A stretch of 64,000 nucleotides of DNA. It comes from a virus. The DNA lies in the IMG/VR virus record IMGVR_UViG_3300045988_061855. The stretch is one strand, 5' to 3'. This document shows, piece by piece, positions 22,736 to 53,700 of the stretch. A model generated the notes under the pieces. The model saw only the letters and a list, made by a program, of their open reading frames with translations, was not told the origin of the DNA and made no database searches. The position numbers and the translations under genes were made by a program. Numbering within the stretch: the stretch's first letter is position 1; every line of letters starts with the position of its first letter.

Positions 22736-22948
22736 ATGAAACTTAGTCAGAATCTTGAAGGAAGAAACGTTAAAATAACATGTGTAGATGGAGATGTATT
22801 TACTGGGCAGGTCAGTGATTATGTATTTCCAGAAGATAATGAACCTGAAGGAGTAGCAGCAATAGATATTGATAATTGTCCTCAGAGTTCTGGAGAAAGC
22901 GTTAGCTTTAATGAAGATGAAATAGCTAACATTGAAGTGATTAACTAA
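22736..22948 (+). CDS. small acidic beta-rich protein (Sm/LSm-like pattern); possible cognate partner of 21773..22735
   Basis: 70 aa starting 1 nt after the upstream stop. Contains GRNVKITCVDGDVFTGQVSDY. Confidence 0.5.
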   Translation: MKLSQNLEGRNVKITCVDGDVFTGQVSDYVFPEDNEPEGVAAIDIDNCPQSSGESVSFNEDEIANIEVIN

Positions 22949-32921: not shown

Positions 32922-35813
32922 ATGAATTCAGTAGCAGAAGAGATTCTTTCCTATATTGGAAGTCAAGCATTCAGCGAAGAAGAATTTCTTGCTCATTATG
33001 GAATGCCTCGTCGAAGTGGAAGATATCCATGGGGCTCGGGAGAGGAGCCATTTCAACATAGTGGAGATTTCTTATCAAGAGTTGAAGAGATGAGAAAATC
33101 TAAGTTTACTTATACTGATGAAGATGGCGTAAAATGGACTGGTGACAATGCAATAGCTAAATCTCTTGGGTACACTTCAAGTGATTTTAGAACTGTATGT
33201 GCCATCGCTAATAATGAGCGTAGGGCTGTAAAAGTTGCCGCCGCTAAAGCATTAAAAGAAAAAGGATTTAATGCAACTGAAATTGGTAGGCAGATGGGAA
33301 TTAACGAATCGTCTGTTAGGTCTTTACTCGATGAAAAAGCAGAAGAGAGAATGAACCAGGCTAGAGCAACTGCTGATTTTTTAAAGGAACAAGTTGATAA
33401 AAAGAAAATGATAGATGTTGGTTCAAAAGCCAACCTTGAATTAAATGTTTCTAAAGAGAAAATGGATCAGGCTCTTTATATGTTGCAGGCAGAAGGTGGT
33501 TATGAAATCTGGGGAAATAGATTTCCACAGGCAACTAATAAAGGACAGTTGACAACTCAGAAGGTTCTGTGTGTTCCTGGAACACCACACAGTGCCATAT
33601 ATGATTTTGGTAAGGTTCAGACTATTGGCGATTATATTACTAGAGACGATGGAAAAACATTTGAAAAGAAGTTTCATTATCCTGAGAGTTTGAACTCTAA
33701 GCGTCTTGAAATCTGTTATGCAGAAGATGGGGGTATAAAGAAAGATGGTCTTATTGAACTTAGAAGGAATGTCCCAGATCTTTCATTAGGAGAGTCTCGA
33801 TATTCTCAGGTTCGTATTATGGTGGATGGTAAGAAATACATAAAAGGAATGGCAGTATATGCTGATGATTTACCAGAAGGCATAGACGTTAGATTTAACA
33901 CCAATAAATCAAATAAATTATCTAAGCTGGAATGTCTCAAGGATGTTAAGAGCGACCCAGACAATCCTTTTGGAGCCCTCATCAAAGAAGAAGGCGGACA
34001 GTATTGGTATACAGATTCAAAGGGTAAAAAGAAGCTTGGATTAATTAATAAAACAAGAGAAGAAGGAGAATGGGAAGAATGGAAAGATTCTTTACCATCT
34101 CAGTTCTTGTCAAAACAGAATAAGGTATTAGCTGAGAAACAGCTAGGAATTGCCAAGGCAGATAAGCAGTCTGAGTTTGATGACATAATGGCATTGAACA
34201 ATCCTACTATTAAAAAATATTATCTTGATAAATTTGCATCATCATGCGACTCAGCAGCAGTGCATTTACAGGCAGCTGCGTTGCCAGGTCAGAAGTATCA
34301 CGTAATATTACCATTAACTACAATGAGTGATAGAGAAGCTTATGCTCCTGATTATGCTGATGGAACTAAACTTGCATTGGTAAGATTCCCACATGGTGGA
34401 ACATTTGAAATACCTATAGTTACTGTTAATAATAGAAATAAAGAAGCTATTAAGATGATTGGTAAGTCTTCAACAGATGCCATAGGTATTAACGCTAATG
34501 TCGCAGGAAGATTATCGGGTGCAGATTTTGATGGCGATACTGTTATGTGTATTCCAACCCATGATAGGGGCGGAAAAGTAAAAATTACATCTACTCCAGA
34601 ATTAAAAGACTTAGAGGGATTTGATCCTAAGCTTAATTATGGTGGCGAATGTAGAAAAGATAGTGATGGTAAAGAACATTATTATCGTAATGGTAGAGAG
34701 TATCGCCTGATGACAAAGACCGATACTGAGATGGGAAAAATTTCTAATCTTATTACTGATATGACCCTGATAGGTGCAACTGAAGATGAGCTTGCAAGAG
34801 CAGTAAAACATTCAATGGTTGTTATCGATGCAGAGAAACATCATCTGGATTATAAGCAGAGTGAGCTTGATAATAACATTGTTGCACTTAAGAAGAAGTA
34901 TCAGGGGAAAGCTCAAGGCGGAGCAGCTACAATTATCTCACAATCAAAAGGTGAGTATGATGTAGATAAAAGACAGGGTACTCCTCGTACTAATCTTAAG
35001 CGTAACGAGTATAAGAATAATCCAGAAAAGGGAGACATTTGGTATGACCCAAGTCGACCTGAAGGTGCCCTTCTCTACAAGAAAGCTGACGATGCTGACT
35101 ATCAGATAACCAAGGTTGATAAGAGAACTGGTGAGGTAACCACTATTACTAAAACCCGCCAACAGAAGAGTACTAAGATGGCCGAGACAGATGATGCCAA
35201 TACACTGGTATCTACTCATCGCCATCCTATGGAATTAGTGTATGCTGATTATGCTAATGCAATGAAAGATATGGCTAACAAGGCTAGAATTGCTATAGCA
35301 GATGCAGGTAAGGTTGCATACAGTAGGGAGGCTAAGAGTAAGTATGAGGTGGAGGTAAAATCTCTTTTAGAAAAACTTAATAATGCTGAAAAGAATGCCG
35401 TTAGAGAGAGAGCCGCACAGAGAATTGCTAATGCCAACATAAATGAGAAATTAGAAGCTAATCCTGACATGAAAGCTAAAGATAAAAAGAAAGTTTCTCA
35501 GCAGGCTTTAAGTAAGGCAAGACTTGAAGTTGGTTCTGTTAAGAGACGAGATAGAAACATAGTAATCACTGATAATGAATGGGAAGCTATTCAGGCAGGT
35601 GCTGTGAGTGAAACGATTCTTAAACGAATACTGAATAATTCAGACCCAGATTCGTTGAGAGCAAAGGCAATGCCTAAAGAATCATCAGCATTATCAGATG
35701 CTAAGATAGCCAGAATTAAAGCTATGTCTGCTTCATACACAATTGCACAGATAGCTGATAAACTTGGCTATTCAACATCAACAATTTCTAAAGCTTTGAA
35801 AGGAGGAAATTAA
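32922..35813 (+). CDS. single-subunit two-barrel (double-psi beta-barrel) RNA polymerase, YonO/beta-prime-like
   Basis: LVRFPHGG at aa 486-493 and SGADFDGDTVMCIP at aa 532-545 (nt 34521..34538 encode ADFDGD) match the beta-prime pattern RxPxxH...NADFDGDQMAVH. GKKYIKGMAVYADDLPEG at aa 303-320 resembles the beta-subunit motif GDKxxxRHGNKGV...EDMP. HTH-like segments occur at aa ~116-136 and ~936-958. The N-terminal HYGMPRRSGRYPWGSGE is a WG motif. Confidence 0.75.
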   Translation: MNSVAEEILSYIGSQAFSEEEFLAHYGMPRRSGRYPWGSGEEPFQHSGDFLSRVEEMRKSKFTYTDEDGVKWTGDNAIAKSLGYTSSDFRTVCAIANNERRAVKVAAAKALKEKGFNATEIGRQMGINESSVRSLLDEKAEERMNQARATADFLKEQVDKKKMIDVGSKANLELNVSKEKMDQALYMLQAEGGYEIWGNRFPQATNKGQLTTQKVLCVPGTPHSAIYDFGKVQTIGDYITRDDGKTFEKKFHYPESLNSKRLEICYAEDGGIKKDGLIELRRNVPDLSLGESRYSQVRIMVDGKKYIKGMAVYADDLPEGIDVRFNTNKSNKLSKLECLKDVKSDPDNPFGALIKEEGGQYWYTDSKGKKKLGLINKTREEGEWEEWKDSLPSQFLSKQNKVLAEKQLGIAKADKQSEFDDIMALNNPTIKKYYLDKFASSCDSAAVHLQAAALPGQKYHVILPLTTMSDREAYAPDYADGTKLALVRFPHGGTFEIPIVTVNNRNKEAIKMIGKSSTDAIGINANVAGRLSGADFDGDTVMCIPTHDRGGKVKITSTPELKDLEGFDPKLNYGGECRKDSDGKEHYYRNGREYRLMTKTDTEMGKISNLITDMTLIGATEDELARAVKHSMVVIDAEKHHLDYKQSELDNNIVALKKKYQGKAQGGAATIISQSKGEYDVDKRQGTPRTNLKRNEYKNNPEKGDIWYDPSRPEGALLYKKADDADYQITKVDKRTGEVTTITKTRQQKSTKMAETDDANTLVSTHRHPMELVYADYANAMKDMANKARIAIADAGKVAYSREAKSKYEVEVKSLLEKLNNAEKNAVRERAAQRIANANINEKLEANPDMKAKDKKKVSQQALSKARLEVGSVKRRDRNIVITDNEWEAIQAGAVSETILKRILNNSDPDSLRAKAMPKESSALSDAKIARIKAMSASYTIAQIADKLGYSTSTISKALKGGN

Positions 35814-36088: not shown

Positions 36089-36393
36089 TATATGTGTAAA
36101 AGCATAGAGGGGGGTCTAAAAAATTAACACCCCCTCCCATCATCGCGCCGGTCTTTATATTTTCCCCGGAGGGAATTTTCGAAAAAGCAAATCCATTTTT
36201 TAGACAGCATTTAAACGAACCTATAATATTTAAAGCACTTAGTACAAGTTGTAAGTCACCTCTCGATTATATTTTATTGCGCCATGATGTAAATTCTCCT
36301 TTCTTTGGGTATTATAGGTTCTTTTAAGTGCTGTCTTATTCTTTATAAAGACTACAAAACTAACAGAGAAATACAAGAAAGGAGGCGGTAAGG
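36089..36393 (+). other. 305-nt non-coding region ahead of the packaging genes; candidate cos/pac site and/or late promoter
   Basis: This is one of the two longest ORF-free gaps, similar in length to the operator region at 30923..31260. It contains G/C-rich hairpins GAGGGGGGT...ACCCCCTC (36107-36137) and TTCCC-cgga-GGGAA (36161-36174), and an AGCACTTA/TAAGTGCT inverted repeat (36233/36325). Confidence 0.35.
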
Positions 36394-36717
36394 ATGCCTA
36401 AAGTCAAGAATTCTGGTACTCAAAGAAGAATGCGTCCGGCATTAACACCAGAAGCACGAGAAAATCAGCTCATTTCTTTAGCTGTAGACCTTGCCGAAAA
36501 GCAGTTAAGAGAGGGAACAGCTTCATCTCAGGTAATTACGCATTATTTGAAAATGGGTTCACCAAGTGAACGGCTCAAAAGAGAACAGATGGAAGAAGAG
36601 AACGAGTTGCTCAAAGCAAAAACTAAAGCTATCAGAGAGTCAGGAGACATGTCTGTAATGTATGAAAAAGCTATAAAGGCAATGCAGTCGTATTCTGGAA
36701 AGGATGAAGATGAGTAG
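36394..36717 (+). CDS. hypothetical protein; possible small terminase/packaging accessory protein
   Basis: 107 aa with a GGAGGCGG RBS. The assignment rests only on its position as first gene of the packaging block. Confidence 0.35.
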   Translation: MPKVKNSGTQRRMRPALTPEARENQLISLAVDLAEKQLREGTASSQVITHYLKMGSPSERLKREQMEEENELLKAKTKAIRESGDMSVMYEKAIKAMQSYSGKDEDE

Positions 36718-37129
36718 GATTCTTTCATATTCAGAGTTAATTACTATTCCATCTTTTGAGGAGCGATTTGAGTATCTCAATCTTAATGGTAGAGTTGGAG
36801 ATGCAACATTTGGGTGTGATAGATATTTGAATCAGGCATTTTATAAGTCTAAAGGGTGGTTGCGTGTAAGAGATGATATAATTATACGAGATAACGGATG
36901 CGATTTAGCGTTTCCTGGTAGAGATATTGATGGACAGATATTGATTCATCATCTTAATCCAATAACAAAATATGATGTGATTAATCATACCAGAAAATTG
37001 TTAGACCCAGAAAATCTTGTATGTACAATTAAACAGACTCATGATGCGATTCACTATGGTGATGAGCGGTTACTTATAAAAAATCCGATAGAACGAAAAA
37101 TAAATGACACATGTCCTTGGAAACATTAA
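36704..37129 (+). CDS. HNH endonuclease (terminase-associated type)
   Basis: Contains WLRVRDDIIIRDNGCDLAFPG...ILIHHLNPIT...NLVCTIKQTHDAIHYG. Confidence 0.75.
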   Translation: MKMSRILSYSELITIPSFEERFEYLNLNGRVGDATFGCDRYLNQAFYKSKGWLRVRDDIIIRDNGCDLAFPGRDIDGQILIHHLNPITKYDVINHTRKLLDPENLVCTIKQTHDAIHYGDERLLIKNPIERKINDTCPWKH

Positions 37130-37139
37130 CGGAGGAGAT

Positions 37140-37481
37140 ATGACAGATAGTATATTAAACTCAATCAAAGGATCGCTATATATAGATGAATCTGAAAAAG
37201 GATTTGATAGCGACATAATTATGCATATCAATTCTGTATTTATGGTGCTTAATCAGCTTGGTGTCGGTCCAGATGAAGGATTCACAATAAGCGATGATTC
37301 GGCAACATGGTCAGATTTTCTTGGCGAAGATAAATCATTAGAAGGTGTAAAGACCTATGTTTATATGAAGGTTAGAATGATTTTTGACCCGCCGACTAGC
37401 AGCTCAGTAATGGATTCTATGAAGCGGTCAATTGATGAACTTGAATGGCGATTGAATATCGCCGTATCAAATAAAAAGTAG
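37140..37481 (+). CDS. hypothetical structural-module protein (possible gp6-like head-tail connector)
   Basis: ATG at 37140 follows GGAGGAG; 113 aa. The assignment is weak. Confidence 0.4.
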   Translation: MTDSILNSIKGSLYIDESEKGFDSDIIMHINSVFMVLNQLGVGPDEGFTISDDSATWSDFLGEDKSLEGVKTYVYMKVRMIFDPPTSSSVMDSMKRSIDELEWRLNIAVSNKK

Positions 37482-37490: not shown

Positions 37491-38024
37491 ATGGAACAGA
37501 ATGAATTAATGCATTACGGAGTTATGGGAATGAAATGGGGTATTAGAAGAGCCGCTTCCAAGAGTTCCCAAAACAATAAATTAGAATTGAAAGCCTTGAA
37601 ATATGATAAGAAAGCAGCAATCCAATCAAAAAAATCAGAAAATGCACATTCTAAGAATGATCTTGGTACAGCGAATAAGAAGGCTAAAAAAGCAAACGAA
37701 TATTTGAAGAAAGCTGCTAAATTACAGACTAAAGCATTAAAAACAGACAATGACATAAAGCGAAGTAATTTAGAGAAAAAAGCGGAAACCCTAAAGTATA
37801 AATCAGCAAAAAAAAACATAGACGCAGACAGGATTTCAAAACTAACTGGATATGGTTATAAGGCTATGCAGTATTCTGTTAAATCAGATAAATTTAAAAA
37901 GAAAGCAGCAAAAGCACGAATGATGATTTCCAGTAATAACAGATACATTACAATGATGAATCATCGTGTTAGTACGTTGCCAAAAGATAAACAGGAATTA
38001 GCGATGAAGTACCTGGGTAAATAG
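37491..38024 (+). CDS. Lys-rich basic protein with N-terminal HYGVxGMKWG motif
   Basis: MEQNELMHYGVMGMKWGIRRAAS, followed by a K/A-rich helical body. Confidence 0.7.
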   Translation: MEQNELMHYGVMGMKWGIRRAASKSSQNNKLELKALKYDKKAAIQSKKSENAHSKNDLGTANKKAKKANEYLKKAAKLQTKALKTDNDIKRSNLEKKAETLKYKSAKKNIDADRISKLTGYGYKAMQYSVKSDKFKKKAAKARMMISSNNRYITMMNHRVSTLPKDKQELAMKYLGK

Positions 38025-38034
38025 GAGGCTCAAA

Positions 38035-38823
38035 ATGGAAAACGAATTATACCATCATGGCGTCCTAGGTCAGAAATGGGGCGTAAGAAGATACCAGAAT
38101 AAAGATGGAAGTCTTACTATGGCTGGAAAGAAGCGTGCATTGCGAATCCAGAACGACTATACAGAACTTACTAATAATAAGAAGTATAGAGACCGTAATG
38201 GTAATATGACATATGCTGGTCGTAAAAAGGCTCTTGCTTTACAGAATGAATATACAAATGTTACTGGTAAAAAACACCTTATAGCATTTAATAACAAGAC
38301 TGGTGCAGGCAAGCAGACTCATCAGAAGAGCGTTAGTGAGATGAGTAATCAGGAATTGCAGGCAAAGGTTGATAGACTTCGATTAGAGAAGCAATTAAAA
38401 GACCTTACGCCAGAACATAAAACAGCTGGTCAGAAATTTGTCGACTTTGTCAAGGATACATCAATGTCCATAATTAAGGATAAGGGAACTAGAATACTTG
38501 GTGATTATGTCGATAAGCAGGTTCGAGATGCTATAGGACTTAATAAGAAAGACCCATTAACCAAGTCTCAGAAACTTGCTCAGGATGCCAAAGATGCGGC
38601 AAACAAGAAAGTAATTGCTCAGGTTGAAGATTACTTTAAAGAGCGAGATAAAGGCAAGAATACAGCAACTGAGACTAAGAAAGATTCTGGATATACTATG
38701 ACAGAAGCTCAGAAGAAAGAACATGATGCATTATTTGGTAATCATGAAACAAAAACTGAATCAGATGCTGAAAAGCGCAAAAGAGAACATGACCGATTGT
38801 TCTCAGGAAGATATGTAGATTAA
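38035..38823 (+). CDS. basic protein with N-terminal HHGVLGQKWG motif and an internal tandem repeat
   Basis: MENELYHHGVLGQKWGVRRYQNKDGSLTMAGKKRALRIQNDYTELT, then a repeat DRNGNMTYAGRKKALALQNEYTNVT. Confidence 0.7.
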   Translation: MENELYHHGVLGQKWGVRRYQNKDGSLTMAGKKRALRIQNDYTELTNNKKYRDRNGNMTYAGRKKALALQNEYTNVTGKKHLIAFNNKTGAGKQTHQKSVSEMSNQELQAKVDRLRLEKQLKDLTPEHKTAGQKFVDFVKDTSMSIIKDKGTRILGDYVDKQVRDAIGLNKKDPLTKSQKLAQDAKDAANKKVIAQVEDYFKERDKGKNTATETKKDSGYTMTEAQKKEHDALFGNHETKTESDAEKRKREHDRLFSGRYVD

Positions 38824-38832: not shown

Positions 38833-40596
38833 ATGGCGTTATCGAATACAGCCACACCGATTTATTATGGCAGGTTTCGAGATGCCGTAATTAGAGGCGA
38901 AATACCAGTATGCGAGGAAATTTCTATGGAGATGAATCGTATAGATGCTCTTATAGCAAATCCTGGTGTATGGTATGACGATAAAGCGGTAAATGGCTTT
39001 ATAAAATATTGTGAGAGTGAACTTACATTAACCAATGGCGATGATTTATTTCTTCTCGATTCATTTAAGCTGTGGGCTGAGGAAATTTTTGGTTGGTATT
39101 ATTATATAGAACGAAGTATTTATGTACCAGACAAAGATAATCATGGCGGACATTACGAGAAGAAAATCATAAGAAAAAGGCTCATAAATAAGCAGTATTT
39201 AATCGTTGCCAGAGGTGCAGCTAAGTCAATGTATGCGTCGTGCATACAAAATTATTTCTTGAATGTAGATACATCTACATCTCATCAGATAACAACAGCC
39301 CCAACAATGGCTCAGGCAGAAGAGGTTATGTCACCTTTTAGAACAGCCATAACAAGAGCCAGAGGTCCATTATATCAATTCTTAACAGAAGGCTCATTGC
39401 AGAACACGACAGGCTCAAAGGCTAATCGTGTAAAGTTGGCAAGTACCAAGAAAGGAATACAGAATTTCCTCACAGGTTCGTTATTAGAAGTAAGACCTAT
39501 GTCAATAGATAAATTGCAGGGATTACGAGTTAAAGTAGCTACCGTCGATGAATGGCTCTCCGGCGATGTTAGAGAAGATGTTGTTGAGACACTTGAACAG
39601 GGAGCTGCAAAGGAACAGGGTGGCGGACAGAATGACGATTATTTGATAGTCGCCATTAGTTCTGAAGGTACTGTTCGTAATGGTTCTGGCGATACAATCA
39701 AAATGGAGCTAATGAAAATCCTTAAGGGAGAACATAATGCTCCTCATACATCTATTTTCTGGTACAAGCTCGACAGCATTGATGAAGTAGGTGACCCGTC
39801 TAAGTGGCCCAAAGCCAATCCTAATCTGGATAAGACTGTCACATATGAGACATATCAAGAAGCGGTCGAAACAGCTGAAAAAAATCCTGCTAAGAGAAAC
39901 GATATACTTGCAAAGCGATTCGGACTTCCGATGGAAGGTTATACATATTACTTTACATATGAAGAAACTCTTCCACATAGAAAGAAAGAATTTTGGCAGA
40001 TGCCTTGTGCGTTGGGAGCAGACCTTTCTCAAGGCGACGATTTCTGTGCTTTTACATTTCTATTTCCGTTATCCAGCGGTTCATTCGGAGTTAAAACCCG
40101 TAACTATATAACAGAATTAACATTAAAAAAACTACCTTTGGCTCTTAGGAATAAATATGAAGAGTTCATTAATGAAGGTAGTCTTATTGTTATGCCTGGA
40201 AATATCTTAGACATGATGCAGGTTTATGATGATTTGGATGAATTCATAATTCGAACCGCTTATGACGTAAGATGCTTCGGTTATGACCCATATAATGCTA
40301 AAGAGTTTGTGGAACGATGGGAACGAGAAAATGGAGCATACGGAATAGAAAAAGTTATACAGGGGGCTAAGACTGAATCTGTACCGTTAGGAGAGTTAAA
40401 GAAATTAGCTGAAGAAAGAATGTTGTTGTTCGACGAGGGGTTGATGACATTCACAATGGGAAATTGTATCACCATCGAAGATACCAATGGTAATCGTAAA
40501 TTATATAAAAACAGATATGATGCCAAGATTGACGCTGTGGCTGCAATGATGGATGCATTTGTAGCATATAAGCACAATCGTGAGGCTTTTGAGTAG
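38833..40596 (+). CDS. terL: terminase large subunit
   Basis: 587 aa. It has a Walker A-like VARGAAKS and a Walker B-like VATVDEW. The C-terminal nuclease region contains GADLSQGDDFCAF. The position upstream of the portal fits. Confidence 0.85.
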   Translation: MALSNTATPIYYGRFRDAVIRGEIPVCEEISMEMNRIDALIANPGVWYDDKAVNGFIKYCESELTLTNGDDLFLLDSFKLWAEEIFGWYYYIERSIYVPDKDNHGGHYEKKIIRKRLINKQYLIVARGAAKSMYASCIQNYFLNVDTSTSHQITTAPTMAQAEEVMSPFRTAITRARGPLYQFLTEGSLQNTTGSKANRVKLASTKKGIQNFLTGSLLEVRPMSIDKLQGLRVKVATVDEWLSGDVREDVVETLEQGAAKEQGGGQNDDYLIVAISSEGTVRNGSGDTIKMELMKILKGEHNAPHTSIFWYKLDSIDEVGDPSKWPKANPNLDKTVTYETYQEAVETAEKNPAKRNDILAKRFGLPMEGYTYYFTYEETLPHRKKEFWQMPCALGADLSQGDDFCAFTFLFPLSSGSFGVKTRNYITELTLKKLPLALRNKYEEFINEGSLIVMPGNILDMMQVYDDLDEFIIRTAYDVRCFGYDPYNAKEFVERWERENGAYGIEKVIQGAKTESVPLGELKKLAEERMLLFDEGLMTFTMGNCITIEDTNGNRKLYKNRYDAKIDAVAAMMDAFVAYKHNREAFE

Positions 40597-40608: not shown

Positions 40609-41862
40609 ATGGAGTTATCTATTACTGATAGAATGAAGCACGCATTTAATGCGTTTATGAATCGAGACCCTACAGCTTATTATAATAGGAATCTTGGTTC
40701 TAGTTATTCCATACGACCCGACCGACCGAGATTAAGTCGTGGAAATGAGCGTTCAATTATTACTGCAATATTCAATCGAATAGCGATGGATGTGGCAGCA
40801 ATAGATATAACACATTGCAGATTGGATGAGAACAATCGATTCATAGAAAAAATCGATTCCGGACTCAACAATTGTTTGAATCTGGAAGCAAATGTAGACC
40901 AGAGTGGACGAGCATTTATACAGGATGCAGTTATGTCTATGTTAGATGAGGGTGTGGTTGCGCTTGTTCCAGTTGACACTGATTTGAATCCAGCAAGCAC
41001 TGATTCATATGACATACTTACAATGAGAACTGGAAAGATTCTTGAATGGTATCCAGCACATGTCAAAGTAAGGCTTTACAATGACCGTACTGGAGAGAAA
41101 GAAGACCTTATGCTGGCTAAGCGAGACGTGGCAATTATTGAAAATCCATTATTTGCCATAGTCAATGAGCCTAATTCAACGATGCAGCGACTTATGAGAA
41201 AATTAAGTTTACTAGATGTGACAGATGAACAAACGGCATCAGGAAAGCTGGATTTAATCATTCAGTTGCCGTATGTAGTCAAGTCAGAGGCTAGGCGTGA
41301 ACAGGCTAATCAGCGTCGAAAAGATATAGAACAACAGTTGGCAGAAGGTAAATATGGAATTGCATATACCGATGGTACCGAGAAAATCACTCAGCTTAAC
41401 CGTTCAGTAGAAAACAATCTCATGAAACAAGTCGAATACCTGACTAATATGGTATACAGTCAAATAGGCATTACCCAGTCAGTTTTAGACGGAACTGCTG
41501 ATGAAAAAACAATGCTTAACTATAACAACCGAACAGTCGAACCGATTGTATCGGCTATCGTTGATGAGCTGAAGCGTAAGTTCCTTACAAAAACAGCTCG
41601 TACTCAGCTGCAATCAATATCGTTCTTTAGAGACCCATTTAAACTGGTTCCAGTAAACGATATTGCTGAAATCGCAGATAAATTCACTAGAAATGAAATC
41701 ATGACTTCAAATGAAATTCGCCAGATTGTTGGAATGAAGCCTTCTAATGACCCTAAGGCGGACCAGCTTATTAATAGTAACATTAGTCAGGCTAAAGAAG
41801 ATAATGTTCCTAGTGAGGGAAATGAAGAATATGGAGAAGGAGGAAAAAGTCAAAATGAGTAA
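40609..41862 (+). CDS. portal protein
   Basis: 417 aa immediately after TerL, with an acidic C-terminus. The call is based on position and size. Confidence 0.7.
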   Translation: MELSITDRMKHAFNAFMNRDPTAYYNRNLGSSYSIRPDRPRLSRGNERSIITAIFNRIAMDVAAIDITHCRLDENNRFIEKIDSGLNNCLNLEANVDQSGRAFIQDAVMSMLDEGVVALVPVDTDLNPASTDSYDILTMRTGKILEWYPAHVKVRLYNDRTGEKEDLMLAKRDVAIIENPLFAIVNEPNSTMQRLMRKLSLLDVTDEQTASGKLDLIIQLPYVVKSEARREQANQRRKDIEQQLAEGKYGIAYTDGTEKITQLNRSVENNLMKQVEYLTNMVYSQIGITQSVLDGTADEKTMLNYNNRTVEPIVSAIVDELKRKFLTKTARTQLQSISFFRDPFKLVPVNDIAEIADKFTRNEIMTSNEIRQIVGMKPSNDPKADQLINSNISQAKEDNVPSEGNEEYGEGGKSQNE

Positions 41863-43654
41863 CTACGATTTTAGTGGCTATGCTACTAGAAATGACTTGC
41901 TGTGTCAGGATGGTCGAACAATACGACAGAATGCATTCGTTGATAACGATGGCTGTGAGGTTCCGCTTGTGTGGAACCATGAACACAATGACCCTAATGC
42001 TGTATTAGGACATGCGGTATTGGAAAATCGTAAAGATGGTGTTTATGCATACGGTATGTTCAATGATACTGAACAGGGGCAGATGGCGAAGAAACTGGTT
42101 CAGAAAGGCGATGTTAAATCATTGTCGATATGGGCAAATCAGTTAAAGCAGATAGGTAATGATGTAATCCACGGAAACATCAGGGAACTCAGTCTTGTAT
42201 TGGCTGGAGCGAACCCAGGTGCGTACGTGGATTTTGTTATGGCTCACAGTGTTGATGAAGAGGATACATTATACGCTTCGTATGATGAGAATATCATGCT
42301 TTATCACTCGGCTGATGAGTCAGAGAAAAAGGAGGACAAGCAGGAAATGGCAGACAACGCAAAGTCACAGGAAGACAACAGCGATGATAAGACTGTTGAA
42401 GATGTAATCAACACAATGAATGAAGAACAGAAGAATGTTCTTTATACACTTATTGGAATGGCTCGAGAAGATGGAGCTGATGATGAAGATGAAAAAGGAG
42501 GAAATGGAAACATGAAACATAATGTTTTCGACAATGAAGGTGATACAAGGCAGTCTAATGTTCTTAGTCACTCAGATGAGCAGCAGATTATTTCACTTGC
42601 TAAGCAGACAGGTGTTGGAAGTCTTAAAGCTGCTATGGAAATCTTTGCAGAAGAGAGCGGTACATTAGCTCATGGTGTGTTTGGAGATGAAACAGAGAAG
42701 TTATTCCCAGAATATGAGCTTCTTAAGAAGGGTGAGCCAGAAACACTCGAGAGAGATCAGAGCTGGATTGGACATGTAATTTCTGGTATTCATAAGAGTC
42801 CAATTAGTAGAATCAGAACAAGACAGGCTGATGCTCGTATTGCTGAACTCAGAGCCAAGGGATATCAGAAGAAGGGTTCTTATAAGCAGGAAATGGCCGA
42901 CATCAAGCTTATTGGAAGAACAACCGATCCACAGACAATATTTATCAAAGCAGATATGCACAGAGATGATATTACTGATATCGTAGATTTTGATGTTGTA
43001 GGATATCAGTGGAGACTCATGAGACATATTCTTCTTGAGGAACTTGCTATTGCTGCTTTAATTGGCGATAGTAGAGATGAGGCTGACCCAGATAAAATTC
43101 ATGAAGAGCATATTCGTTCTATTTGGAATGATGACGACCTTTATTGTATTCATCAGTCAATCGATTATGAAAAGATGAAGACGAAGCTCAATGGTACTAA
43201 TACTGGGGCTAACTTCGGAGAAGAATACATTAAGGCTGAAGCAACAATTGCCGCAGCACTTTATGCAAGAGAAAAGTATAAGGGTTCGGGTAGCCTTGAT
43301 TACTACTGCACACCACATGCACTTAATGTTATGTTACTCGCTAGAGATCTTAACGGTAGAAGAATCTACTCTTCAAAGGCTGACCTTGCAGCAGCACTTA
43401 ATGTAGAAAATATCTACACCGTAGAGCAGTTTGAGGGAAAGACAAGAGAAGTAACTTCAGGCGGAACTAAGAAGCTTGTAGGTCTCTTTGTTAATCTTGG
43501 AGACTATCAGTTTGGTTCCACAAAGGGTGGTGAAATCACAAAGTTTGACGACTTTGATATGGATTTCAATAGATACAAGTATATGCTTGAAACAAGACTC
43601 TCAGGTTCATTAACAAAGCTGTATTCAGCTATTGCGCTTGAAGAAGATGCCTAA
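41855..43654 (+). CDS. prohead protease (HK97 S78-like) fused to a scaffold-like linker and the major capsid protein
   Basis: ATG at 41855 follows GGAGAAGGAGG. The N-terminal VPLVWNHEHNDPNAVLGH...GDVKSLSIWAN is protease-like. An acidic linker spans aa ~165-250. A ~350-aa capsid-like domain forms the C-terminus. No separate protease, scaffold or MCP gene is present. Confidence 0.65.
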   Translation: MSNYDFSGYATRNDLLCQDGRTIRQNAFVDNDGCEVPLVWNHEHNDPNAVLGHAVLENRKDGVYAYGMFNDTEQGQMAKKLVQKGDVKSLSIWANQLKQIGNDVIHGNIRELSLVLAGANPGAYVDFVMAHSVDEEDTLYASYDENIMLYHSADESEKKEDKQEMADNAKSQEDNSDDKTVEDVINTMNEEQKNVLYTLIGMAREDGADDEDEKGGNGNMKHNVFDNEGDTRQSNVLSHSDEQQIISLAKQTGVGSLKAAMEIFAEESGTLAHGVFGDETEKLFPEYELLKKGEPETLERDQSWIGHVISGIHKSPISRIRTRQADARIAELRAKGYQKKGSYKQEMADIKLIGRTTDPQTIFIKADMHRDDITDIVDFDVVGYQWRLMRHILLEELAIAALIGDSRDEADPDKIHEEHIRSIWNDDDLYCIHQSIDYEKMKTKLNGTNTGANFGEEYIKAEATIAAALYAREKYKGSGSLDYYCTPHALNVMLLARDLNGRRIYSSKADLAAALNVENIYTVEQFEGKTREVTSGGTKKLVGLFVNLGDYQFGSTKGGEITKFDDFDMDFNRYKYMLETRLSGSLTKLYSAIALEEDA

Positions 43655-45794: not shown

Positions 45795-46346
45795 ATGCTT
45801 CAGATAGTTGTTCCACCACCTTTATTAGAAGAATGGGATGAGTTGAGGGAAGAATTTGTATATCACGAATCTGGTAAGCCGTATGTGCTACAACTTGAAC
45901 ATTCTCTTATCTCACTTTCAAAATGGGAAGAAAAGCATTGTAAGCCATTCATATCATCAGAGAAAAACGAAGAAGAGAATCTGGATTACATCCGATGTAT
46001 GACACTTACACCGCATGTTCCTGATGAAATATATGACCGCTTAACAAAAGAAAATATAAAAGAAATTTTAGACTACATTGAAGCTCCGATGACTGCCACT
46101 ACTTTTTCAGATAGAGGACCTAAAACCCCTAGCCGAGAAAAAGTGACCGCGGAGCTTATTTATTATTGGATGATTAAATGTCAGATACCTATTGAGTTTC
46201 AGAAATGGCATCTCAATAAGTTAATAACATTAATACGGGTTTGTGAAGTAAAAGATTCACCGCCTAAGAAGCATAGTCAACGGGAATTACTTAATCATCA
46301 TGCTGCTGTAAATGCAGCAAGACGAAAAGCACACACGAAAGGATGA
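45795..46346 (+). CDS. tail assembly protein (gpT-position) with its own start
   Basis: 183 aa with a GGGAGG RBS. Contains LEHSLISLSKWEEKHCKPF. Confidence 0.55.
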   Translation: MLQIVVPPPLLEEWDELREEFVYHESGKPYVLQLEHSLISLSKWEEKHCKPFISSEKNEEENLDYIRCMTLTPHVPDEIYDRLTKENIKEILDYIEAPMTATTFSDRGPKTPSREKVTAELIYYWMIKCQIPIEFQKWHLNKLITLIRVCEVKDSPPKKHSQRELLNHHAAVNAARRKAHTKG

Positions 46347-46351
46347 TTATT

Positions 46352-47365
46352 ATGGAATTTTATGGAATTGATGTATCACATTATCAGGGAAATATAGATT
46401 GGAACGCAGTAGCTAAGACTGGTATTAATTTTGCATTTGTAAAAGCTGGTGGTTCAGAAGATGGAATCTATACAGAATCAATGTTTGAAAAGAATTATGC
46501 CGGAGCTAAGGCAGCCGGATTAAATGTAGGAGCCTATTATTTTCCAGGTTCTAATTTTACATCAGAAGAAGCAGGAATCGCCGATGCTAGACGTTTCTTG
46601 GATATCATCGCTGGTAAGACATTTGAAATGCCTGTAGCTCTTGATTTGGAAGGCACTAAACCGGAAGATAAAGATGGAGCTACCATAGCTACCATAGCAT
46701 TTTGCAAGATTATGGAAGCTGCTGGCTATTATGTAATGATTTATGGCGGCGACATATTCAGCTTCAACGATCGTTTAAATCTTGGTGAATTAGACGAATT
46801 CGATAAGTGGGTTGCCAGATATGGCTCAGAACCACAGTATGTAAAGGAATATGGAATTTGGCAGTATTCATCAACTGATTATGTTGACGGTATTACAGAA
46901 AATACAGTTGATAAGGATGTAGCATATAAGAACTATCCAGAAATTATCAAGAATGCTGGACTTAATGGTTTTTCATCAGATGCTGTAGATGAACCAGAAA
47001 ATGAGACTCCAGATGAACCTGCTATTGAAGAGCCAGAAGAATCGTCAGATGAACCAGTCACTTATGTAATACAGTCTGGTGACACATTATCTGAAATCGC
47101 TGCAAGATACAATACAACGGTAGATGAACTGGTTGAATTAAATGGAATTGATAACCCGGATTTAATTTATCCTGGAAATGAAATCACTGTTAAGGCAGGT
47201 TCTTCGAGGGATGATGACTGTGATGTAGCATATCAGGTTAGACCTGGTGACACATTATCTGAAATTGCTGCAAGATACAATACAACAGTTGGGAGATTAG
47301 TAGAGGTTAATGGAATTGATAACCCGGATTTAATTTATCCTGACACTATATTAAAAATTAAATAA
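46352..47365 (+). CDS. endolysin: GH25 muramidase plus two LysM domains
   Basis: YGIDVSHYQGNIDWNAVAKTGINFAFVKA is GH25-like. Two LysM repeats read GDTLSEIAARYNTTV..L.E.NGIDNPDLIYP. The ATG at 46352 has better RBS spacing than the one at 46343. Confidence 0.85.
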   Translation: MEFYGIDVSHYQGNIDWNAVAKTGINFAFVKAGGSEDGIYTESMFEKNYAGAKAAGLNVGAYYFPGSNFTSEEAGIADARRFLDIIAGKTFEMPVALDLEGTKPEDKDGATIATIAFCKIMEAAGYYVMIYGGDIFSFNDRLNLGELDEFDKWVARYGSEPQYVKEYGIWQYSSTDYVDGITENTVDKDVAYKNYPEIIKNAGLNGFSSDAVDEPENETPDEPAIEEPEESSDEPVTYVIQSGDTLSEIAARYNTTVDELVELNGIDNPDLIYPGNEITVKAGSSRDDDCDVAYQVRPGDTLSEIAARYNTTVGRLVEVNGIDNPDLIYPDTILKIK

Positions 47366-47378: not shown

Positions 47379-47756
47379 ATGATTAGCTTCAGACAAAAGG
47401 GCGACTTTTCGAAGTTGAATAAATACTTTGAAAGGGTTAGAGAGGCTGCTCGAATCGGCGTATTAGACAAGTATGGTCGAGAGGGAGTGGCAGCCCTTGC
47501 GTCTGCTACACCTATAGACACAGGAGTAACCGCCAATTCGTGGTATTACGAGATAAATCGTCAAAATGGAAGTGTTTCAATCGAGTTTAAAAATTCGAAT
47601 ATAAACAATGGTGTTCCTATAGCAATAATTTTGCAATATGGACATGCCACTGGAAACGGAGGCTGGGTTCAGGGTCGAGATTATATTAATCCTGCTATCC
47701 AGCCTATTTTTGACGCAATCGCAGATAACGCTTGGAGGGAGGTTACTAAAGCATGA
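47379..47756 (+). CDS. HK97 gp10-like head-tail/tail component
   Basis: 125 aa. ...ASATPIDTGVTANSWYYEI... is typical of the gp10 family. Confidence 0.55.
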   Translation: MISFRQKGDFSKLNKYFERVREAARIGVLDKYGREGVAALASATPIDTGVTANSWYYEINRQNGSVSIEFKNSNINNGVPIAIILQYGHATGNGGWVQGRDYINPAIQPIFDAIADNAWREVTKA

Positions 47757-50700
47757 GTAGCAAAGAAGTTGACGAGCGTGTCGTCGAAATGCGGTTTGAT
47801 AATGCTCAGTTTGAGAAAAATGTTCAGACGAGTATGTCAACATTAGATAAGTTAAAAGCCAAACTTAATTTTAATGGTGTTTCTAAAGGTCTTGAAGATG
47901 TTGGAAATGCCACTAAAAAACTTGAGTTTTCAGGTGTGACTTCTGGTATAGAAGCAGTGCAGGCGAAGCTCTCAGCAATGGAAGTAATAGGTGTTACTGC
48001 ATTGGCTAATATAACTAATTCTGCGGTTAATGCTGGAAAGAGAATTGCATCAGCTATAACCATTGACCCAGTTCGAGATGGTTTTAACGAGTATGAAACT
48101 CAGATGAACGCAGTTCAGACGATTCTGGCGAATACTCAGAAAGAGGGAACAAATGTAAAACAAGTTAATGCTGCACTTGACCAGTTAAATACTTACGCTG
48201 ATAAGACCATATACAATTTTACGGAGATGACACGTAATATTGGTACTTTCACAGCAGCAGGTGTTAAGTTGGATACTTCCGTGTCGGCTATTCAGGGTAT
48301 AGCCAATCTAGCCGCAGTGTCAGGTTCAACATCTCAACAGGCGTCTACTGCCATGTATCAGCTTTCACAGGCTTTGGCATCTGGTACAGTTAAACTTATG
48401 GACTGGAATTCAGTTGTTAATGCAGGCATGGGCGGTCAGGTATTTCAGGATGCATTAATAAGAACATCTGAAAAACTGGGAACCGGTGCAAAAGCATATA
48501 TTGATGCTGCTGGTTCATTTAGAGAATCACTGTCAAAGGGTTGGTTGACGACAGATGTTCTTACTGAGACTTTAGATATGTTTTCTACAGCAGCTGATAC
48601 TGAAGAAGAATATGCAGCTGCTATTCAGAAGTTCGTCAATGAAGGATATTCAGAAGAACAGGCTGTAGATATGGCCAATATGGCTAAAACTGCTGGTGAA
48701 GCAGCAACAAAGGTTAAGACATTTACACAGCTTATAGACACACTCAAGGAGGCACTTGGTTCTGGATGGACAACCACATGGCGATTAATAATTGGTGACT
48801 TCGAAGAGGCTAAGGAACTCTGGACAAATGTTTCAGATGTTCTTAGCAAGTTAATTAACAACGCTTCAGAGGCAAGAAATAAATTAGTAGAGGGAGTTAT
48901 GTCTTTTAACCCTTTTACTAATATGCTTAATAAACTCGAGAATTCTGACATTGGAAAAACTGTTAAACAGATAAATAATTTAACAAATAGTCTCGAATAT
49001 TATCAGAAAGCAGTAACTGATGTATGGAAAGGTGATTATAAGAATTCTGATACAGGACGATATGAATTGCTTGATGAAGCTGGATATAATCATCAAGTTA
49101 TACAGGATTTAGTTAATAAAGGTTATGAATATGAACTTACAGTAGAAGATGTGCAGGAAGCGGAAGCTAAGTTTGCAGATTCATTAGGCGACTCTACTGA
49201 AGAAATTCAAAATGAATCTAAGCAATTGGCGAAGCTTTCAGATGAACAGTTAAGCCATGCTGGTTTGACCGATGATGAGATTTCTATGTATAGAGATTTG
49301 GAAAAACAGTCTGAGAAAACTGGCAAATCTATAGAAGAACTCATTAACGATATGAGTGCGAAGGATGGCAGAACTTTATTATGGGATGGATTTGGTAATA
49401 TTGGAGAAACTCTCATAATTACATTTACAGCCATAAAGGATGCATTTTCTGAGATATTCCCAGCGCCATCCGTTGCTAAGATTTATGGTGTTATCGATGG
49501 ATTTAATGCACTTACTGAAAAGATGAAAGAATTCAGTAGCACACATGCATATGATGTAGAGCAGACTTTCAAAGGATTGTTTGCAGTAATTGATATTGTG
49601 CGAATGGTTTTAAGTTCCGGTCTTACAGTTGCATTTAAAGCATTGAAAGGAATCCTTAGTGCATTTGATATAGACATCATTGAATTTACAGGTTACATAG
49701 GTGAAGCACTTGTTAATCTTCGTAATTGGTTGAAAAACAATGATTACATCGAGAAATCTTTCAAGAAAGTAGGAGAAGGTTTAAAAGTTGTAATCGACGG
49801 AATAAAGAAACTTATAGATTTACTTAAAAAATCGCCAAGAATTCAGAAATTTGTTGATATTATAAAAGATATTGACCTAAAAGAAGCTGGCGGATTTGTC
49901 GTTGAAGGTCTTAAGAAAGGCTTATCGTCAGGATTAACCATTATTCCAGATATGCTGAAAGATATAGGTTTAAAACTATTATCAGCATTTGAGAAAGTGC
50001 TTAGAATTGCTTCCCCATCTAAAGAGATGGAGGCTGATGGTGAATTTGTAGTTGCTGGATTGGTTAAAGGTATAGAAAACACTGCATCTACAGTATGGGA
50101 TGCAATAAAAGACATTGGTACAAAGATAATTACCAAGTTTAAAGAGATTAAGGTCGGCGAAGCATTAACTAAGGTTATATCAGTTGGTGCTGGCGTTGGA
50201 ATGCTAGCCATCACAAAGAACCTTGTTGACACATTTAAGAATATAACAGCCCCAATGGCTAGTGTTGGTGAATTTATAGAGACACTTGATAAGTCAGTCA
50301 AAAAGACAGCTAAAGCGATAGGTAAGAATCTTAAAGCATCTGCATTTGAGAAGAAAACAGAAGGTGTTCGTAATCTTGCATTGGCACTTTTAGCATTATC
50401 TGCGGCAGTATTTATAATGTCAAAGATAGACACTAAAAAGTTATGGTCTACAGTTGGTGCAATAGGTGTATTGGCTGTAATACTTGTTGGGTTGGCAGTT
50501 GCAATTAGTAAGCTGACAGATTCTGCTGTTGAATTGGATAGCAATAGCAAGACACTTAAGTTAAGTGGGTTAAAAACTACACTCATAAGTATAGGTGTGG
50601 CTCTAGCATTAATGGCGGCAACTGTTAAGATCATGGGAAGTTTAAATCCTGATGCGTATATGCAAGGATTGTTGGGTCTTGTTACTCTTATGGGTGTTAT

Positions 50701-53700
50701 GATGCTTTTAATAGTATCTATGAGTTTACTTGTATCTGACAATAATAGTAAGAGTATACAGCAGGCTGGAAAAGCTATGAAGAAGATTGCTACAGCAATG
50801 CTTCTTATGGTAGCTGGCATAGCTATTCTTGGAAATATGAAACCAGAGAAGTATGCTCAGGGCCTTGATGGGTTTAATACTATCACGGCAGCTTTACTTG
50901 CAACCATAATCGGTTTAGTAGCATTAACTTATATAGCAACAGACAAAGACATATCTCAGGTTGGAAACTTAATGCTTAAGATAAGTGCCTCTATGTTATT
51001 AATGGCTGTTATGCTCAAAATGCTTAAGTCCATTGAACCAGCAGAAATGATAAAAGGAGCATTAATAGTTGGAGCTGCAATTGGTCTTGTCGTGGTGTTA
51101 GTTGCTTTATCACATCTTGGAAAGAAAAATGGGAAAGACATATCTCAGGTTGGAAACCTGATGCTAAAGATAAGTGCCTCTATGTTATTAATGGCTGTTA
51201 TGCTCAAGGTACTTAAATCGGTAGATTATGCTGAAATTGGAAAAGGTGCATTAATCTTGGCTGGAGTTGCAGTATTAATTGCTGGATTGGTCGCATTAAC
51301 TCATAAAGCATCTGATAAACAGATAAAAGGAATCGGTAAAATGCTATTGGCTGTATCGCTGTGCTTTGCAGTTATGGCTGGTGTGTGTTTAGTTCTTGGG
51401 TTATTGCCGGTTGACAAAATAGTTCAGGGATTAGCGGCTGTAGCAGCATTCACAATATTAATAGAGGGATTAATAGCTGTGGCAGCGATTGCTGGTAAAG
51501 TAGATGAGAATGCATCTAAAACTTTAATGAGTGCTGCAATTGCGATAGGTGTTATGGCTGCCGCAGTGGCAATATTATCTATACTCAAACCGGAGAAGAT
51601 AATAGTGGCTACAGCATGTATGAGCGTACTAGTCGGATTATTTGCATTGGTTGAGTTCTGTGCTTCAAAAGTACAAGGAGCAATGGGGTCTTTGATTGCT
51701 ATGGCAGTTGTTATAGGGCTTCTTGGTGGATTACTCATTGCTATATCATGTTTGCCGGTAGAGAAAACTATGGTCGCGACAGCAGAATTAGCGATATTAA
51801 TGGCAGTTATGGCTGGAGTGATGTTCTTAGTAAGTAAAGTCCCAGTCAGTGCGGCTATAACTGGCGCTGCTGGATTAGCTGCATTCATAGGAATATTTGC
51901 AGCCACATTAGCAATTCTCGGCGGTCTTAGTAAGATACCAGGAGTATCAGATATAGTTAATTCCGGAGGAGAGTTCTTAGCAAATATTGGATATGCTCTT
52001 GGAAATTTCATTGGTAGTATTATTGGCGGATTCGGCGCAGGTGTTTCTTCAGGACTACCTGAAATTGGAACTAACCTTGCATTATTTATGGAAAATGCTC
52101 AGCCATTTTTCGATGGTATTACCGGTATAGATGCTGTGTCAATGATAGCGAATATTGGTTCATTAACAGCTGCTATATTATTACTAACAGCAGCTGATTT
52201 TATATCCGGCATGGCTACATTTATGAAAGGTAAGAATTCATTTTCTCAGTTAGGAAAAGAGCTTTCAGCATTTATAGTAAGTGCTCAGCCATTTATAGAT
52301 GGTGCTAAATCGCTCACTGGTGAGATGATGGAGGGTGTTAAGGCGTTATCAGAAACATTACTGATGCTTACTGCCGCTGATTTAATAGATGGAATAAGCT
52401 CTTGGTTGACTGGAGGAACATCATTATCAGATTTTGCCGAACAGTTAAAGCCTTTTGGTGAAGCAATGGTAGAATTTTCTGATGTGGTTGCTGGAAAGAT
52501 TGATATTGATGCAGTTAATTCCGCAGCAAACGCTGGAAAGATAATGGCTGAGATGGAGAAGAGTGTCACTAAAACAGGTGGCGTAGTGCAGTGGTTTACC
52601 GGTGAGCATGATATGGGTAAATTCTCAACACAATTAGTTCAGTTTGGTAGAGCAATAGTTCGTTTCTCCGACACTGTATCGGTTGGAGTGAATGAAGAAG
52701 CCATAACAGCCGCTGCAAATGCCGGAAAGATTATGGCTGAAATGCAGAAAGACATTACACCATCTGGGGGCGTTGTAGAATGGTTTACCGGTGAAAAAGA
52801 TATGGGTAAATTCTCAACACAGCTAACTCAGTTCGGAAATGCTATTGTTAATTTTTCTAGTAAAGTGGCTGGAAAGATAGATGAAGGAGCAGTAACAGCA
52901 GCCGCAAATGCCGGTGCAATAATTGCAGATATGCAAAAGAATATAGCCCCATCAGGTGGTGTAGTGCAGTGGTTTACAGGCGATAAAGACATGAGTGCAT
53001 TCTCTAAACAGTTAGTTCAGTTTGGTGAAGCAATCGTTAAATATTCCGATAAGGTCACAAATGTTGATGCTACAGGTGTCGAAAAGTCTCTAACATTTTC
53101 AAGAGCATTGCTCGGTGTAATAAACAGTTCATTATCAATAAATGAAAATGGGATAACTAAGTTTGGTAAAACAGCAGATATTGGTACGACAATTCAGGCA
53201 TATGCTGAGAAGATAGCGTCTGTAAACTTAACATCGGTAACCACATCAATCAGTGCTGCAAAACAATTACGAGACTTTGTACAGAGTTTAAATAACTTTG
53301 ATATATCTGGAATAGCAACCTTCGATGAGGCTGTTAAAGAATTTTCAAAAGTTAATATGAGTTCGATAAAGAATGTACTTGATGGATATTCTTCAGAATT
53401 CAATGCCCTTGGAAAGAAATTCTTAACTTCGTTGGTCGAAGGCTATTCATCAAAAGAAGAAAGCTTTTTAGCAGCGGTTGACTCAAGTTTACAAAGAGCC
53501 ATAGAAACAATTAATTCATACTATCAGAGCATTAATAGCAGCGGAGCATATCTGGTTAGTGGCTTTGTCTCTGGTATAAACGTCAATACGTTCAGAGTAG
53601 AAGCATCTGCTAGAATAATGGCTAAGGCAGCATATGATGCAGCTAAAAGAGAATTGGATATCAATTCGCCATCTAGGGTTATGGAAAAATTAGCTAGTTA

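Follow-up and report, generated by a model that had tools for sequence, protein, structure and literature searches.

A short peptide shared by an RNA polymerase, basic proteins and a toxin-like protein of a gut siphophage is a candidate head-loading signal

Why should a phage RNA polymerase (RNAP), two basic proteins encoded beside the terminase and a toxin-like protein carry versions of one short peptide? The question is raised by the window analysed here, a stretch of 64,000 nucleotides from IMG/VR virus record IMGVR_UViG_3300045988_061855, and above all by positions 37,491 to 38,823, where two adjacent open reading frames (ORFs) each begin with the peptide. A preliminary description of this DNA had named the four proteins and proposed that the motif marks them for packaging in the virion and ejection with the DNA. 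The short form of the peptide is Pfam family DUF7211. It is read here as a docking peptide that loads cargo (the RNAP, basic internal proteins and effectors) into the procapsid, at a probability of roughly 55%. The window phage is a cos siphophage of gut Firmicutes, and its lineage comprises Lactococcus phage 1706, which is the nearest cultured relative, Faecalibacterium phage FP_oengus and the actinophage clusters BI, AM, AU, DJ, CC and EL.

A conserved peptide in the head module of one phage lineage

All of the sequences quoted for the four proteins in the preliminary description are found in the window, that of the RNAP as a longer variant. LMHYGVMGMKWGIRR occupies aa 6-20 (nt 37506-37550) of a Lys-rich protein of 177 aa (ORF 37491-38024, N-terminus MEQNELMHYGVMGMKWGIRR), and LYHHGVLGQKWGVRR occupies aa 5-19 (nt 38047-38091) of a basic protein of 262 aa (ORF 38035-38823, N-terminus MENELYHHGVLGQKWGVRR). 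IIHSGVKGMKWGVKN lies inside the toxin-like protein of 320 aa (ORF 21773-22735), at aa 175-189 (nt 22295-22339) and not at aa 184-198, a numbering that was 9 off. The long variant LAHYGMPRRSGRYPWGSGE is located at aa 23-41 (nt 32988-33044) of the 963-aa RNAP (ORF 32922-35813). All four genes lie on the plus strand. Both terminase-adjacent proteins are basic, as had been said of them, with isoelectric points (pI) of 10.2 for ORF 37491, which contains 21.5% Lys, and 9.7 for ORF 38035.

The pattern H.G..G.KWG matches exactly three ORFs in the six-frame translation of the window, where about 1e-4 matches are expected from amino-acid frequencies and 200 shuffles gave none. A hidden Markov model (HMM) built from 40 motif copies taken from other phages matches only the three motif ORFs among 1239 six-frame segments (E 5e-18, 7e-16 and, for ORF 21773, 5e-12; next match 0.66). 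Chance or a compositional artefact is ruled out by the expected count, the shuffles and this HMM. Pfam DUF7211 (PF23847, 25 aa) recognises ORFs 37491, 38035 and 21773 with E values of 7e-10, 1.7e-6 and 1.2e-5; the first two score 38.6 and 27.7 bits, over the gathering score of 27 bits, and ORF 21773 lies slightly under it at 25.1 bits. The Pfam entry assigns no function to the family, and no paper mentioning DUF7211 or the motif was found in the literature searched, Arthrobacter and Microbacterium phage papers included.

The DUF7211 consensus is [DE]-x-L-x-H-[YH]-G-[VI]-x-G-[MQ]-K-W-G-[VI]-[RK]-[RK]. An extended form, with the consensus [DNS]-E-L-Y-H-H-G-I-K-G-[QM]-K-W-G-V-R-R-Y-Q-N-x-D-G-[ST]-L-T-x-A-G-K-K-R-Y, heads ORF 38035 as ELYHHGVLGQKWGVRRYQNKDGSLTxAGKKR; the Pfam model captures neither this 35-aa form (RRYQNxDGSLTxAGKKRY) nor the long variant of the RNAP. 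The family of ORF 38035 has 3787 homologues. Eight proteins scanned with NCBIfam gave nothing above a curated cut-off, with zero matches for ORFs 37491, 38035, 35816 and 21773 and the connector, and a Foldseek search with the ORF 38035 model found no match.

A search of 50,697 phage records with a 20-aa motif consensus returned 932 copies in 242 records, all within the lineage named above. Full-length homologues of the RNAP occur in 251 phage records, and the counts by genus are the same for both: Arthrobacter 95, Gordonia 55, Streptomyces 54, Curtobacterium 7, Microbacterium 4 and Faecalibacterium 2. A slight mismatch is seen for Lactococcus and Rhodococcus, for which the RNAP counts are 13 and 4. 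Loci in IMG/VR were sampled by their RNAP, a sampling unbiased with respect to the motif. Here a motif gene lies between the connector gene and the gene of the terminase large subunit (TerL) in 33 of 35 loci and between TerL and portal in 17 of 30, and each of the 30 loci that cover connector to portal has at least one. In nearly all related loci, the motif genes come directly after the connector gene. When the motif's DNA pattern alone was used for sampling, lineage head genes were found beside the motif gene in 76 of 80 viral loci and on 63 of 80 contigs from bacteria or metagenome-assembled genomes, mostly of Lachnospiraceae, Oscillospiraceae, Ruminococcus, Faecalibacterium, Clostridium leptum, Collinsella and Actinomyces; among the exceptions in the latter set, five matched the DNA pattern by chance and two are genes of the toxin type. 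Motif genes belong to the constant content of the lineage's head module, and the survey of distribution and context that the preliminary description had suggested confines the motif to one phage lineage and places it in that module.

The proteins behind the peptide are diverse. In phage ReqiPoco6 six consecutive genes from TerL to portal each open with FLAHYGVxGMKWG and have unrelated remainders, and phage Qui has eight consecutive genes of this kind between TerL and portal. An exhaustive profile search of a protein library detected the motif in 37,311 protein clusters. In the 150 highest-ranking clusters it occurs 2-5 times per protein, starting at aa 6-25 and recurring at intervals of 100-600 aa, and no RNAP homologue with the canonical short motif is among them. 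Known partner domains are rare and of enzyme or effector type; they include GNAT, Gln-deamidase toxin, Barstar, 2'-5' RNA ligase/2H phosphoesterase, Ntox50, CW_7 and helix-turn-helix (HTH) domains. The 137 motif proteins sampled have a median length of 184 aa and a median pI of 10.0, with pI above 9 in 93%. Upstream of TerL in ReqiPoco6, gp015 (14111-15727) is a 2H phosphoesterase or 2'-5' RNA ligase-like enzyme with an internal motif at aa 330-352, and for other motif genes the records of Gordonia and Arthrobacter phages give acetyltransferase or amidase as the product. Such actinophage enzymes might be cargo candidates acting against host signalling or defence.

In AlphaFold2 models the motif is disordered, with a predicted local distance difference test (pLDDT) score of 32-57, beside confidently modelled domains and despite being the most conserved stretch. 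In ORF 38035, the motif at aa 1-19 has a pLDDT of 44-57 and the helical repeats at aa 21-80 have 86-96. DUF7211 is a short conserved peptide common to otherwise unrelated proteins and situated in a flexible region, and its being invariant yet disordered is as expected for a docking motif that folds on its partner. The variable positions of motif copies are also more alike within a genome (0.57) than between genomes (0.44), a difference reached in none of 2000 permutations, which fits a shared, genome-specific partner.

The RNA polymerase, the toxin-like protein and the virion labels of phage 1706

The identification of ORF 32922 as an RNAP is borne out. It is a single-subunit, two-barrel enzyme of the YonO/crAss type (phrog_4291, 1176 bits) with HTH domains at both ends and the catalytic loop DFDGD, in which ADFDGDT is invariant. 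A YonO/crAss-like RNAP has been recognised in the cross-phylum phage group to which the window phage belongs and was grouped with the replication genes, in a study silent on the motif and on a virion location of the RNAP (bioRxiv 10.1101/842583). Across four RNAPs of 40-47% overall identity, L-x-H-Y-G-x2-R-x-S-G-R-Y-P-W-G-S-G is invariant, and in the alignment of these four the conservation of the long variant equals that of the catalytic DFDGD loop. Every full-length RNAP of 80 IMG/VR loci has the long variant, with W replaced by Y in about 15 and longer loops in a few.

Is the long variant the same peptide? A profile-profile comparison of the long and short forms gives a probability of 92.9% and E 3.6e-7 over 13 columns only (acidic-L-x-H-Y-G-hydrophobic). 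The best non-self match of the long-form HMM in the window is the N-terminus of ORF 37491 (E 0.045). The two forms appear to be related, and because the profile alignment spans only the first 13 columns, homology is supported for the N-terminal half alone. The long form also stands at the head of a 197-aa protein that is not an RNAP in another gut phage, so it is modular too. The RNAPs of three other IMG/VR loci (L022, L027 and L031) have one or two extra N-terminal half-motifs, IAEEIxxY[YF]G, before the full HYG...SGRYP[WY]GSG. These extra copies suggest that the acidic-hydrophobic-x-[HY]-Y-G half may be a unit of its own.

ORF 21773 encodes a protein of three parts. DUF5662 at aa 1-172 (21773-22288) is modelled as a confident all-alpha domain, and the linker at aa 174-207, consisting of the motif and NGPPYP, has a pLDDT of 32-49 and is the most invariant stretch of the family. 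Residues 208-320 form an alpha+beta Ntox50 RNase-type toxin domain (E 8e-22). With Foldseek, this domain matches the Bacillus subtilis LXG toxin YxiD (9v8i_B, E 5.9e-6, TM-score 0.76 on the target). The order DUF5662-DUF7211-Ntox50 recurs throughout the homologues listed, from 1591 matches. One relative keeps the N-terminal part at 90% identity and has DUF6883 as its C-terminus instead. The gene is followed, from its stop codon, by an ORF for an acidic protein of 70 aa and pI 4.05 (22736-22948, plus strand), a candidate immunity protein that has no family match; this ORF is conserved beside the toxin gene and is fused to it in one homologue. ORF 21773 has, as judged from its sequence, the layout of a polymorphic toxin, with a constant N-terminal part, a swappable C-terminal toxin and a candidate immunity gene adjacent. 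DUF5662 of this ORF has invariant H12, H47-D48, H84, H86, H90, H91, D100 and D124, a pattern like that of HD phosphohydrolases, for which the sole Foldseek support is a weak match to HD hydrolase 2o08.

Ntox50 is among the toxin domains fused to MuF head proteins, and the MuF protein gp7 of SPP1 binds the portal and is present in capsids (Jamet et al., PMC5576092). No MuF gene follows the portal in the window, as the preliminary description had stated; the protease-capsid fusion follows directly. The four motif proteins, the proteins encoded next to them and another ten large ORFs were searched for a MuF domain of the PF04233 or PF06152 type, and none was found. Given that Ntox50-MuF fusions exist elsewhere and that MuF is absent here, the motif in ORF 21773 may, by analogy, occupy the place of a head-targeting module.

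A possible link to the virion is provided by phage 1706 (EU081845). Only orf7 and orf75 of this phage bear the motif. The gene of orf7 lies between the connector homologue and TerL, and its product has two motif copies (Pfam E 6.9e-11); orf75, homologous to the RNAP, carries the long variant. The authors deposited the two as "structural protein", a label given to 3 of about 55 ORFs outside the morphogenesis block, orf75 among them. The 1706 labels reportedly come from gel electrophoresis (SDS-PAGE) and liquid chromatography with tandem mass spectrometry (LC-MS/MS) of purified virions. Reviews citing 1706 give no proteome details.

A candidate head-loading peptide and its alternatives

In the proposed mechanism, tagged proteins would bind a conserved head component during procapsid assembly; candidate receptors are the interior of the protease-capsid fusion, the portal and the connector. 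The proteins would then be enclosed in the head and would later leave it with the DNA. The cargo of the window phage would include the two small, strongly basic proteins, with an internal, DNA-associated or scaffold-like role in the head, and the HD-like/Ntox50 RNase effector, which has its own candidate immunity gene. By way of the longer peptide variant it would also include the YonO-type RNAP, which could allow host-independent transcription at entry. The virion-packaging tag of the preliminary description is supported in part, by the 1706 labels, the position in the head module, the modular and disordered character of the motif and the Ntox50-MuF fusions; that the peptide is itself the loading determinant, and that the cargo is ejected, we infer. 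A broader claim falls a little short of an even chance: DUF7211 would be a portable tag for head loading in general, equivalent in tailed phages to the cargo-loading peptides of encapsulins. With it a very large cross-phylum lineage, spread over gut Firmicutes and soil Actinobacteria, would carry a changeable arsenal: a YonO-type RNAP, basic proteins that condense DNA, proteins active on membranes, and toxins or enzymes directed against defence.

Several results weigh against loading by the peptide. In 1706, orf62 and orf71 are labelled structural, are encoded outside the head module and do not have the motif, which means that the motif is not necessary for virion association. The "structural" labels of ReqiPepy6 and ReqiPoco6 were considered as independent virion evidence and rejected, as they are copied from 1706; the 1706 labels are consequently the sole experimental anchor. 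For the RNAP, the Pfam DUF7211 model gives no match at E <= 0.1, the alignment of its variant with the short motif is limited to the first half, and the two forms do not co-vary within genomes (0.218 in the same genome vs 0.208, p = 0.15). The gene of ORF 21773 is located in the early/middle region, outside the head module. A transmembrane-like segment, awkward for soluble head cargo, is found in 18% of the 137 motif proteins. The similarity of motif copies within a genome could reflect mere recent duplication, and a sequence search of solved structures with ORF 38035, the RNAP and the motif profile gave no match.

Four other explanations were weighed. The motif may be mainly a maturation or processing signal at module boundaries, where the prohead protease would recognise and perhaps cut it, or where the protein would cleave itself, and not a head-loading element. 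Polymorphic toxins have comparable pre-toxin boundary motifs. Proteins with several copies resemble strings of modules, each opened by the motif, and identical modules exist as separate genes in other phages. The point at which toxins are swapped in the ORF 21773 family is just past the motif and NGPPYP, conservation and acidic character extend to the residues ahead of the motif (E at -3, L at -2), and the T4 capsid-targeting sequence (CTS) is also removed by the prohead protease. However, most copies are at the extreme N-terminus, where cleavage would free only 5-10 residues. Processing is judged unlikely as a replacement for head loading, with which it is compatible and not mutually exclusive.

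Somewhat harder to sustain is the proposal that the motif docks accessory proteins on the RNAP, or on another non-structural hub of phage or host, and that the motif proteins are transcription or takeover factors. This would account for the near-perfect co-occurrence of motif and RNAP across the 50,697 phage records, for the sigma-70 region 4 or other HTH domains of some motif proteins and for the conservation of the motif across host phyla. Lineage head genes co-occur equally, so the co-occurrence does not discriminate. The RNAP bears its own variant of the motif, which fits a shared receptor better than the RNAP as receptor, motif genes are in the head and packaging module and not with early or regulatory genes, and 1706 orf7 is labelled structural.

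Still less probable is an extended signal-peptide or membrane-targeting element, similar to the KxYKxGKxW or YSIRK motifs found at the N-termini of proteins that Gram-positive bacteria secrete; the motif proteins would then work at the envelope, where they could bring about lysis, exclude superinfecting phages or form channels. Many actinophage motif proteins are annotated as membrane proteins, some, such as ReqiPoco6 gp020, have the layout motif, spacer, basic stretch and hydrophobic helix, and a few have CW_7 cell-wall-binding repeats; the 18% with a transmembrane-like segment belong here too. However, the other 82%, including both basic proteins of the window and the RNAP, have no hydrophobic segment, internal and tandem copies do not fit, and a secreted RNAP would be senseless. 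NCBIfam, which is understood to hold a KxYKxGKxW signal-peptide model, gives no match at E <= 0.1. A signal peptide of the KxYKxGKxW or YSIRK type was judged unlikely on the absence of a hydrophobic segment from the window proteins and of an NCBIfam match.

Least credible is that the basic proteins 5' of TerL are a small terminase or packaging accessory, with the motif as a TerL- or DNA-docking element: their position directly 5' of TerL is conserved in 33 of 35 loci, they are typically 110-190 aa long and basic, no small terminase subunit (TerS) is annotated anywhere in the lineage and one motif protein matches the Pfam Phage_terminase small-subunit HTH, but motif proteins are hypervariable, occur in multiple copies and in some cases have a membrane anchor, the motif is also on the RNAP and toxins, Foldseek finds no TerS-like fold, orf7 of 1706 is labelled a virion protein, unlike a TerS, and a better candidate is the o4-like gene, which is single-copy, the first past cos and 50-59% identical between gut phage and actinophages. 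For ORFs 37491 and 38035 themselves, a TerS identity was judged unlikely, with no TerS match in Pfam, NCBIfam or PHROG.

The surrounding genome, known systems and significance

The gene order in the window is the RNAP (32922), a 90-aa ORF, a 305-bp gap, the o4-like gene (36394), an HNH endonuclease (36704), Phage_connect_2 (37104), the two motif genes, TerL (38833), the portal (40609) and the prohead-protease/capsid fusion (41747). All of the head-module genes are on the plus strand. The o4-like gene (36394-36717, 107 aa, phrog_4259, a family without assigned function) is followed by the HNH endonuclease (36704-37129, phrog_4321, E 2e-57) and by the "connector" or virion structural protein of the Phage_connect_2 family (37104-37481), a homologue of 1706 orf6. 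The placing of the two basic proteins between the HNH endonuclease and TerL in the preliminary description stands, with the addition that the connector gene separates the endonuclease from them. Downstream are TerL (38833-40596), the portal protein (40609-41862) and the fusion of an S78 prohead protease with the major capsid protein (41747-43654, phrog_3270, E 7e-205).

A probable cos site lies at 36106-36156 (plus strand), where a G/C-run hairpin with the arms GAGGGGGGTC...ACACCCCCTCC is followed by CATCAT and, past the presumed junction, by CGCGCCGGTC. Five independent IMG/VR viral contigs terminate at the homologous point. The 10-mer at this place resembles CGCCCCAGTC, the cos overhang of Lactococcus phages P078 to P162 (PMC4110766). 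With cos inside it, the window spans the physical ends of the genome. As cos falls in the gap after the RNAP, no large gene follows the RNAP at the right end, and the left end opens with the o4-like gene. The o4-like protein has 50-59% identity to the product of gene 1 or gene 2 in actinophages, occurs as a single copy in each of 242 phage records and is called "hypothetical" in all the annotated records listed; judged by its position, the gene is the lineage's best small-terminase candidate.

Two other IMG/VR records, IMGVR_UViG_3300023487_000006 and IMGVR_UViG_3300045988_080268, have RNAP homologues 99% identical to that of the window, and the first has the same gene order from RNAP to capsid. 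Homologues of ORF 21773 occur on long contigs named Ruminococcus, Lachnospiraceae or Eubacteriales, several of them above 150 kb, which indicates that members of the lineage also occur as prophages. The host of the window phage is probably a gut clostridial bacterium.

The preliminary description had also mentioned promoter-like elements, specific to a phage RNAP, that could drive the early genes. The repeats of the early region that are possibly meant look like intrinsic terminators and not promoters, each a hairpin with a T-run. Seven intergenic copies are present on the plus strand, at 2566, 3209, 3769, 18271, 20484, 25926 and 30708. All share one sequence in the 3' arm and tail (GGGCTCTTTCTTTT), the 5' arm differs between copies yet remains complementary, and the RNA folds have energies of -12.6 to -20.9 kcal/mol (z -3.3 to -5.4). 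The early region contains, within 5 kb, three paralogous DUF6353 proteins (3861-4697, 5188-5958 and 7760-8725; E 4e-57 to 4e-69). Inside the structural block, a GH25 muramidase of the endolysin type with two LysM domains is encoded at 46343-47365, just 5' of a putative tape-measure gene for 2135 aa (47753-54160).

Capsid-targeting peptides and virion RNAPs are known already as kinds, from the T4 CTS, encapsulins, MuF toxins and the N4, crAss and P23-45 enzymes. The CTS of T4 is a short N-terminal peptide of the internal proteins IPI-III and Alt that is bound to the scaffolding core and cleaved by gp21. In both systems a short peptide is found on unrelated, mostly basic proteins, and those of T4, anti-host effectors among them, are taken into the head and enter the host along with the DNA; the basic character of the motif proteins is itself a likeness to the T4 internal proteins. 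The CTS differs in having no sequence similarity to DUF7211, which is also found internally and in tandem, and in the DUF7211 lineage the protease is fused to the capsid protein and a separate scaffold gene is lacking. Encapsulin cargo-loading peptides are Gly-rich, disordered and 10-20 aa long, and dock diverse enzymes inside a shell of the HK97 fold. They share with DUF7211 a conserved, disordered, Gly-rich peptide on diverse enzymes, and cargo genes that adjoin the shell gene; they differ in being usually C-terminal and in their consensus, and the receptor of DUF7211 may equally be the portal or connector.

MuF proteins such as SPP1 gp7 likewise combine a constant N-terminal part with swappable C-terminal toxins, including Ntox50, and are encoded in the packaging module by the portal (PMC5576092). 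However, the MuF domain is folded and spans about 100-250 aa, against about 15-35 aa for the DUF7211 peptide, and the Ntox50 protein of the window is encoded outside the head module. Virion RNAPs have been described as the vRNAP of N4, the two-barrel enzymes of crAss-like phages and the tape-measure-fused enzyme of P23-45 (PMC13434306; PMC10172136; 10.1101/2022.12.01.518664). Such an RNAP is carried in the particle and transcribes the first genes, and the RNAP of the window is of the same two-barrel YonO/crAss-like class; the differences are that a virion location in this lineage rests on a single GenBank label in 1706, that the window phage is a siphophage of Gram-positive bacteria and that its RNAP has only about 960 aa. 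In the literature searched on virion RNAPs, loading by a peptide tag shared with other cargo is not described. What would be new is a loading peptide of exceptionally broad reach, so far catalogued only as a DUF, together with an RNAP that the literature searched has not treated as a virion enzyme in this lineage.

The opening minutes of an infection are settled by phage proteins injected with the DNA, which act in transcription, against defence and in host shut-off and are hard to spot by sequence. The hypothesis is testable in cultured phages, namely 1706, FP_oengus and hundreds of SEA-PHAGES isolates. If it is true, a 15-aa tag would be available for packaging enzymes or foreign cargo into phage heads, and tens of thousands of uncharacterised proteins of phages abundant in the human gut and in soil would become predictable as ejected cargo. 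The YonO-like RNAP of this lineage would then be a virion RNAP in siphophages of Gram-positive bacteria.

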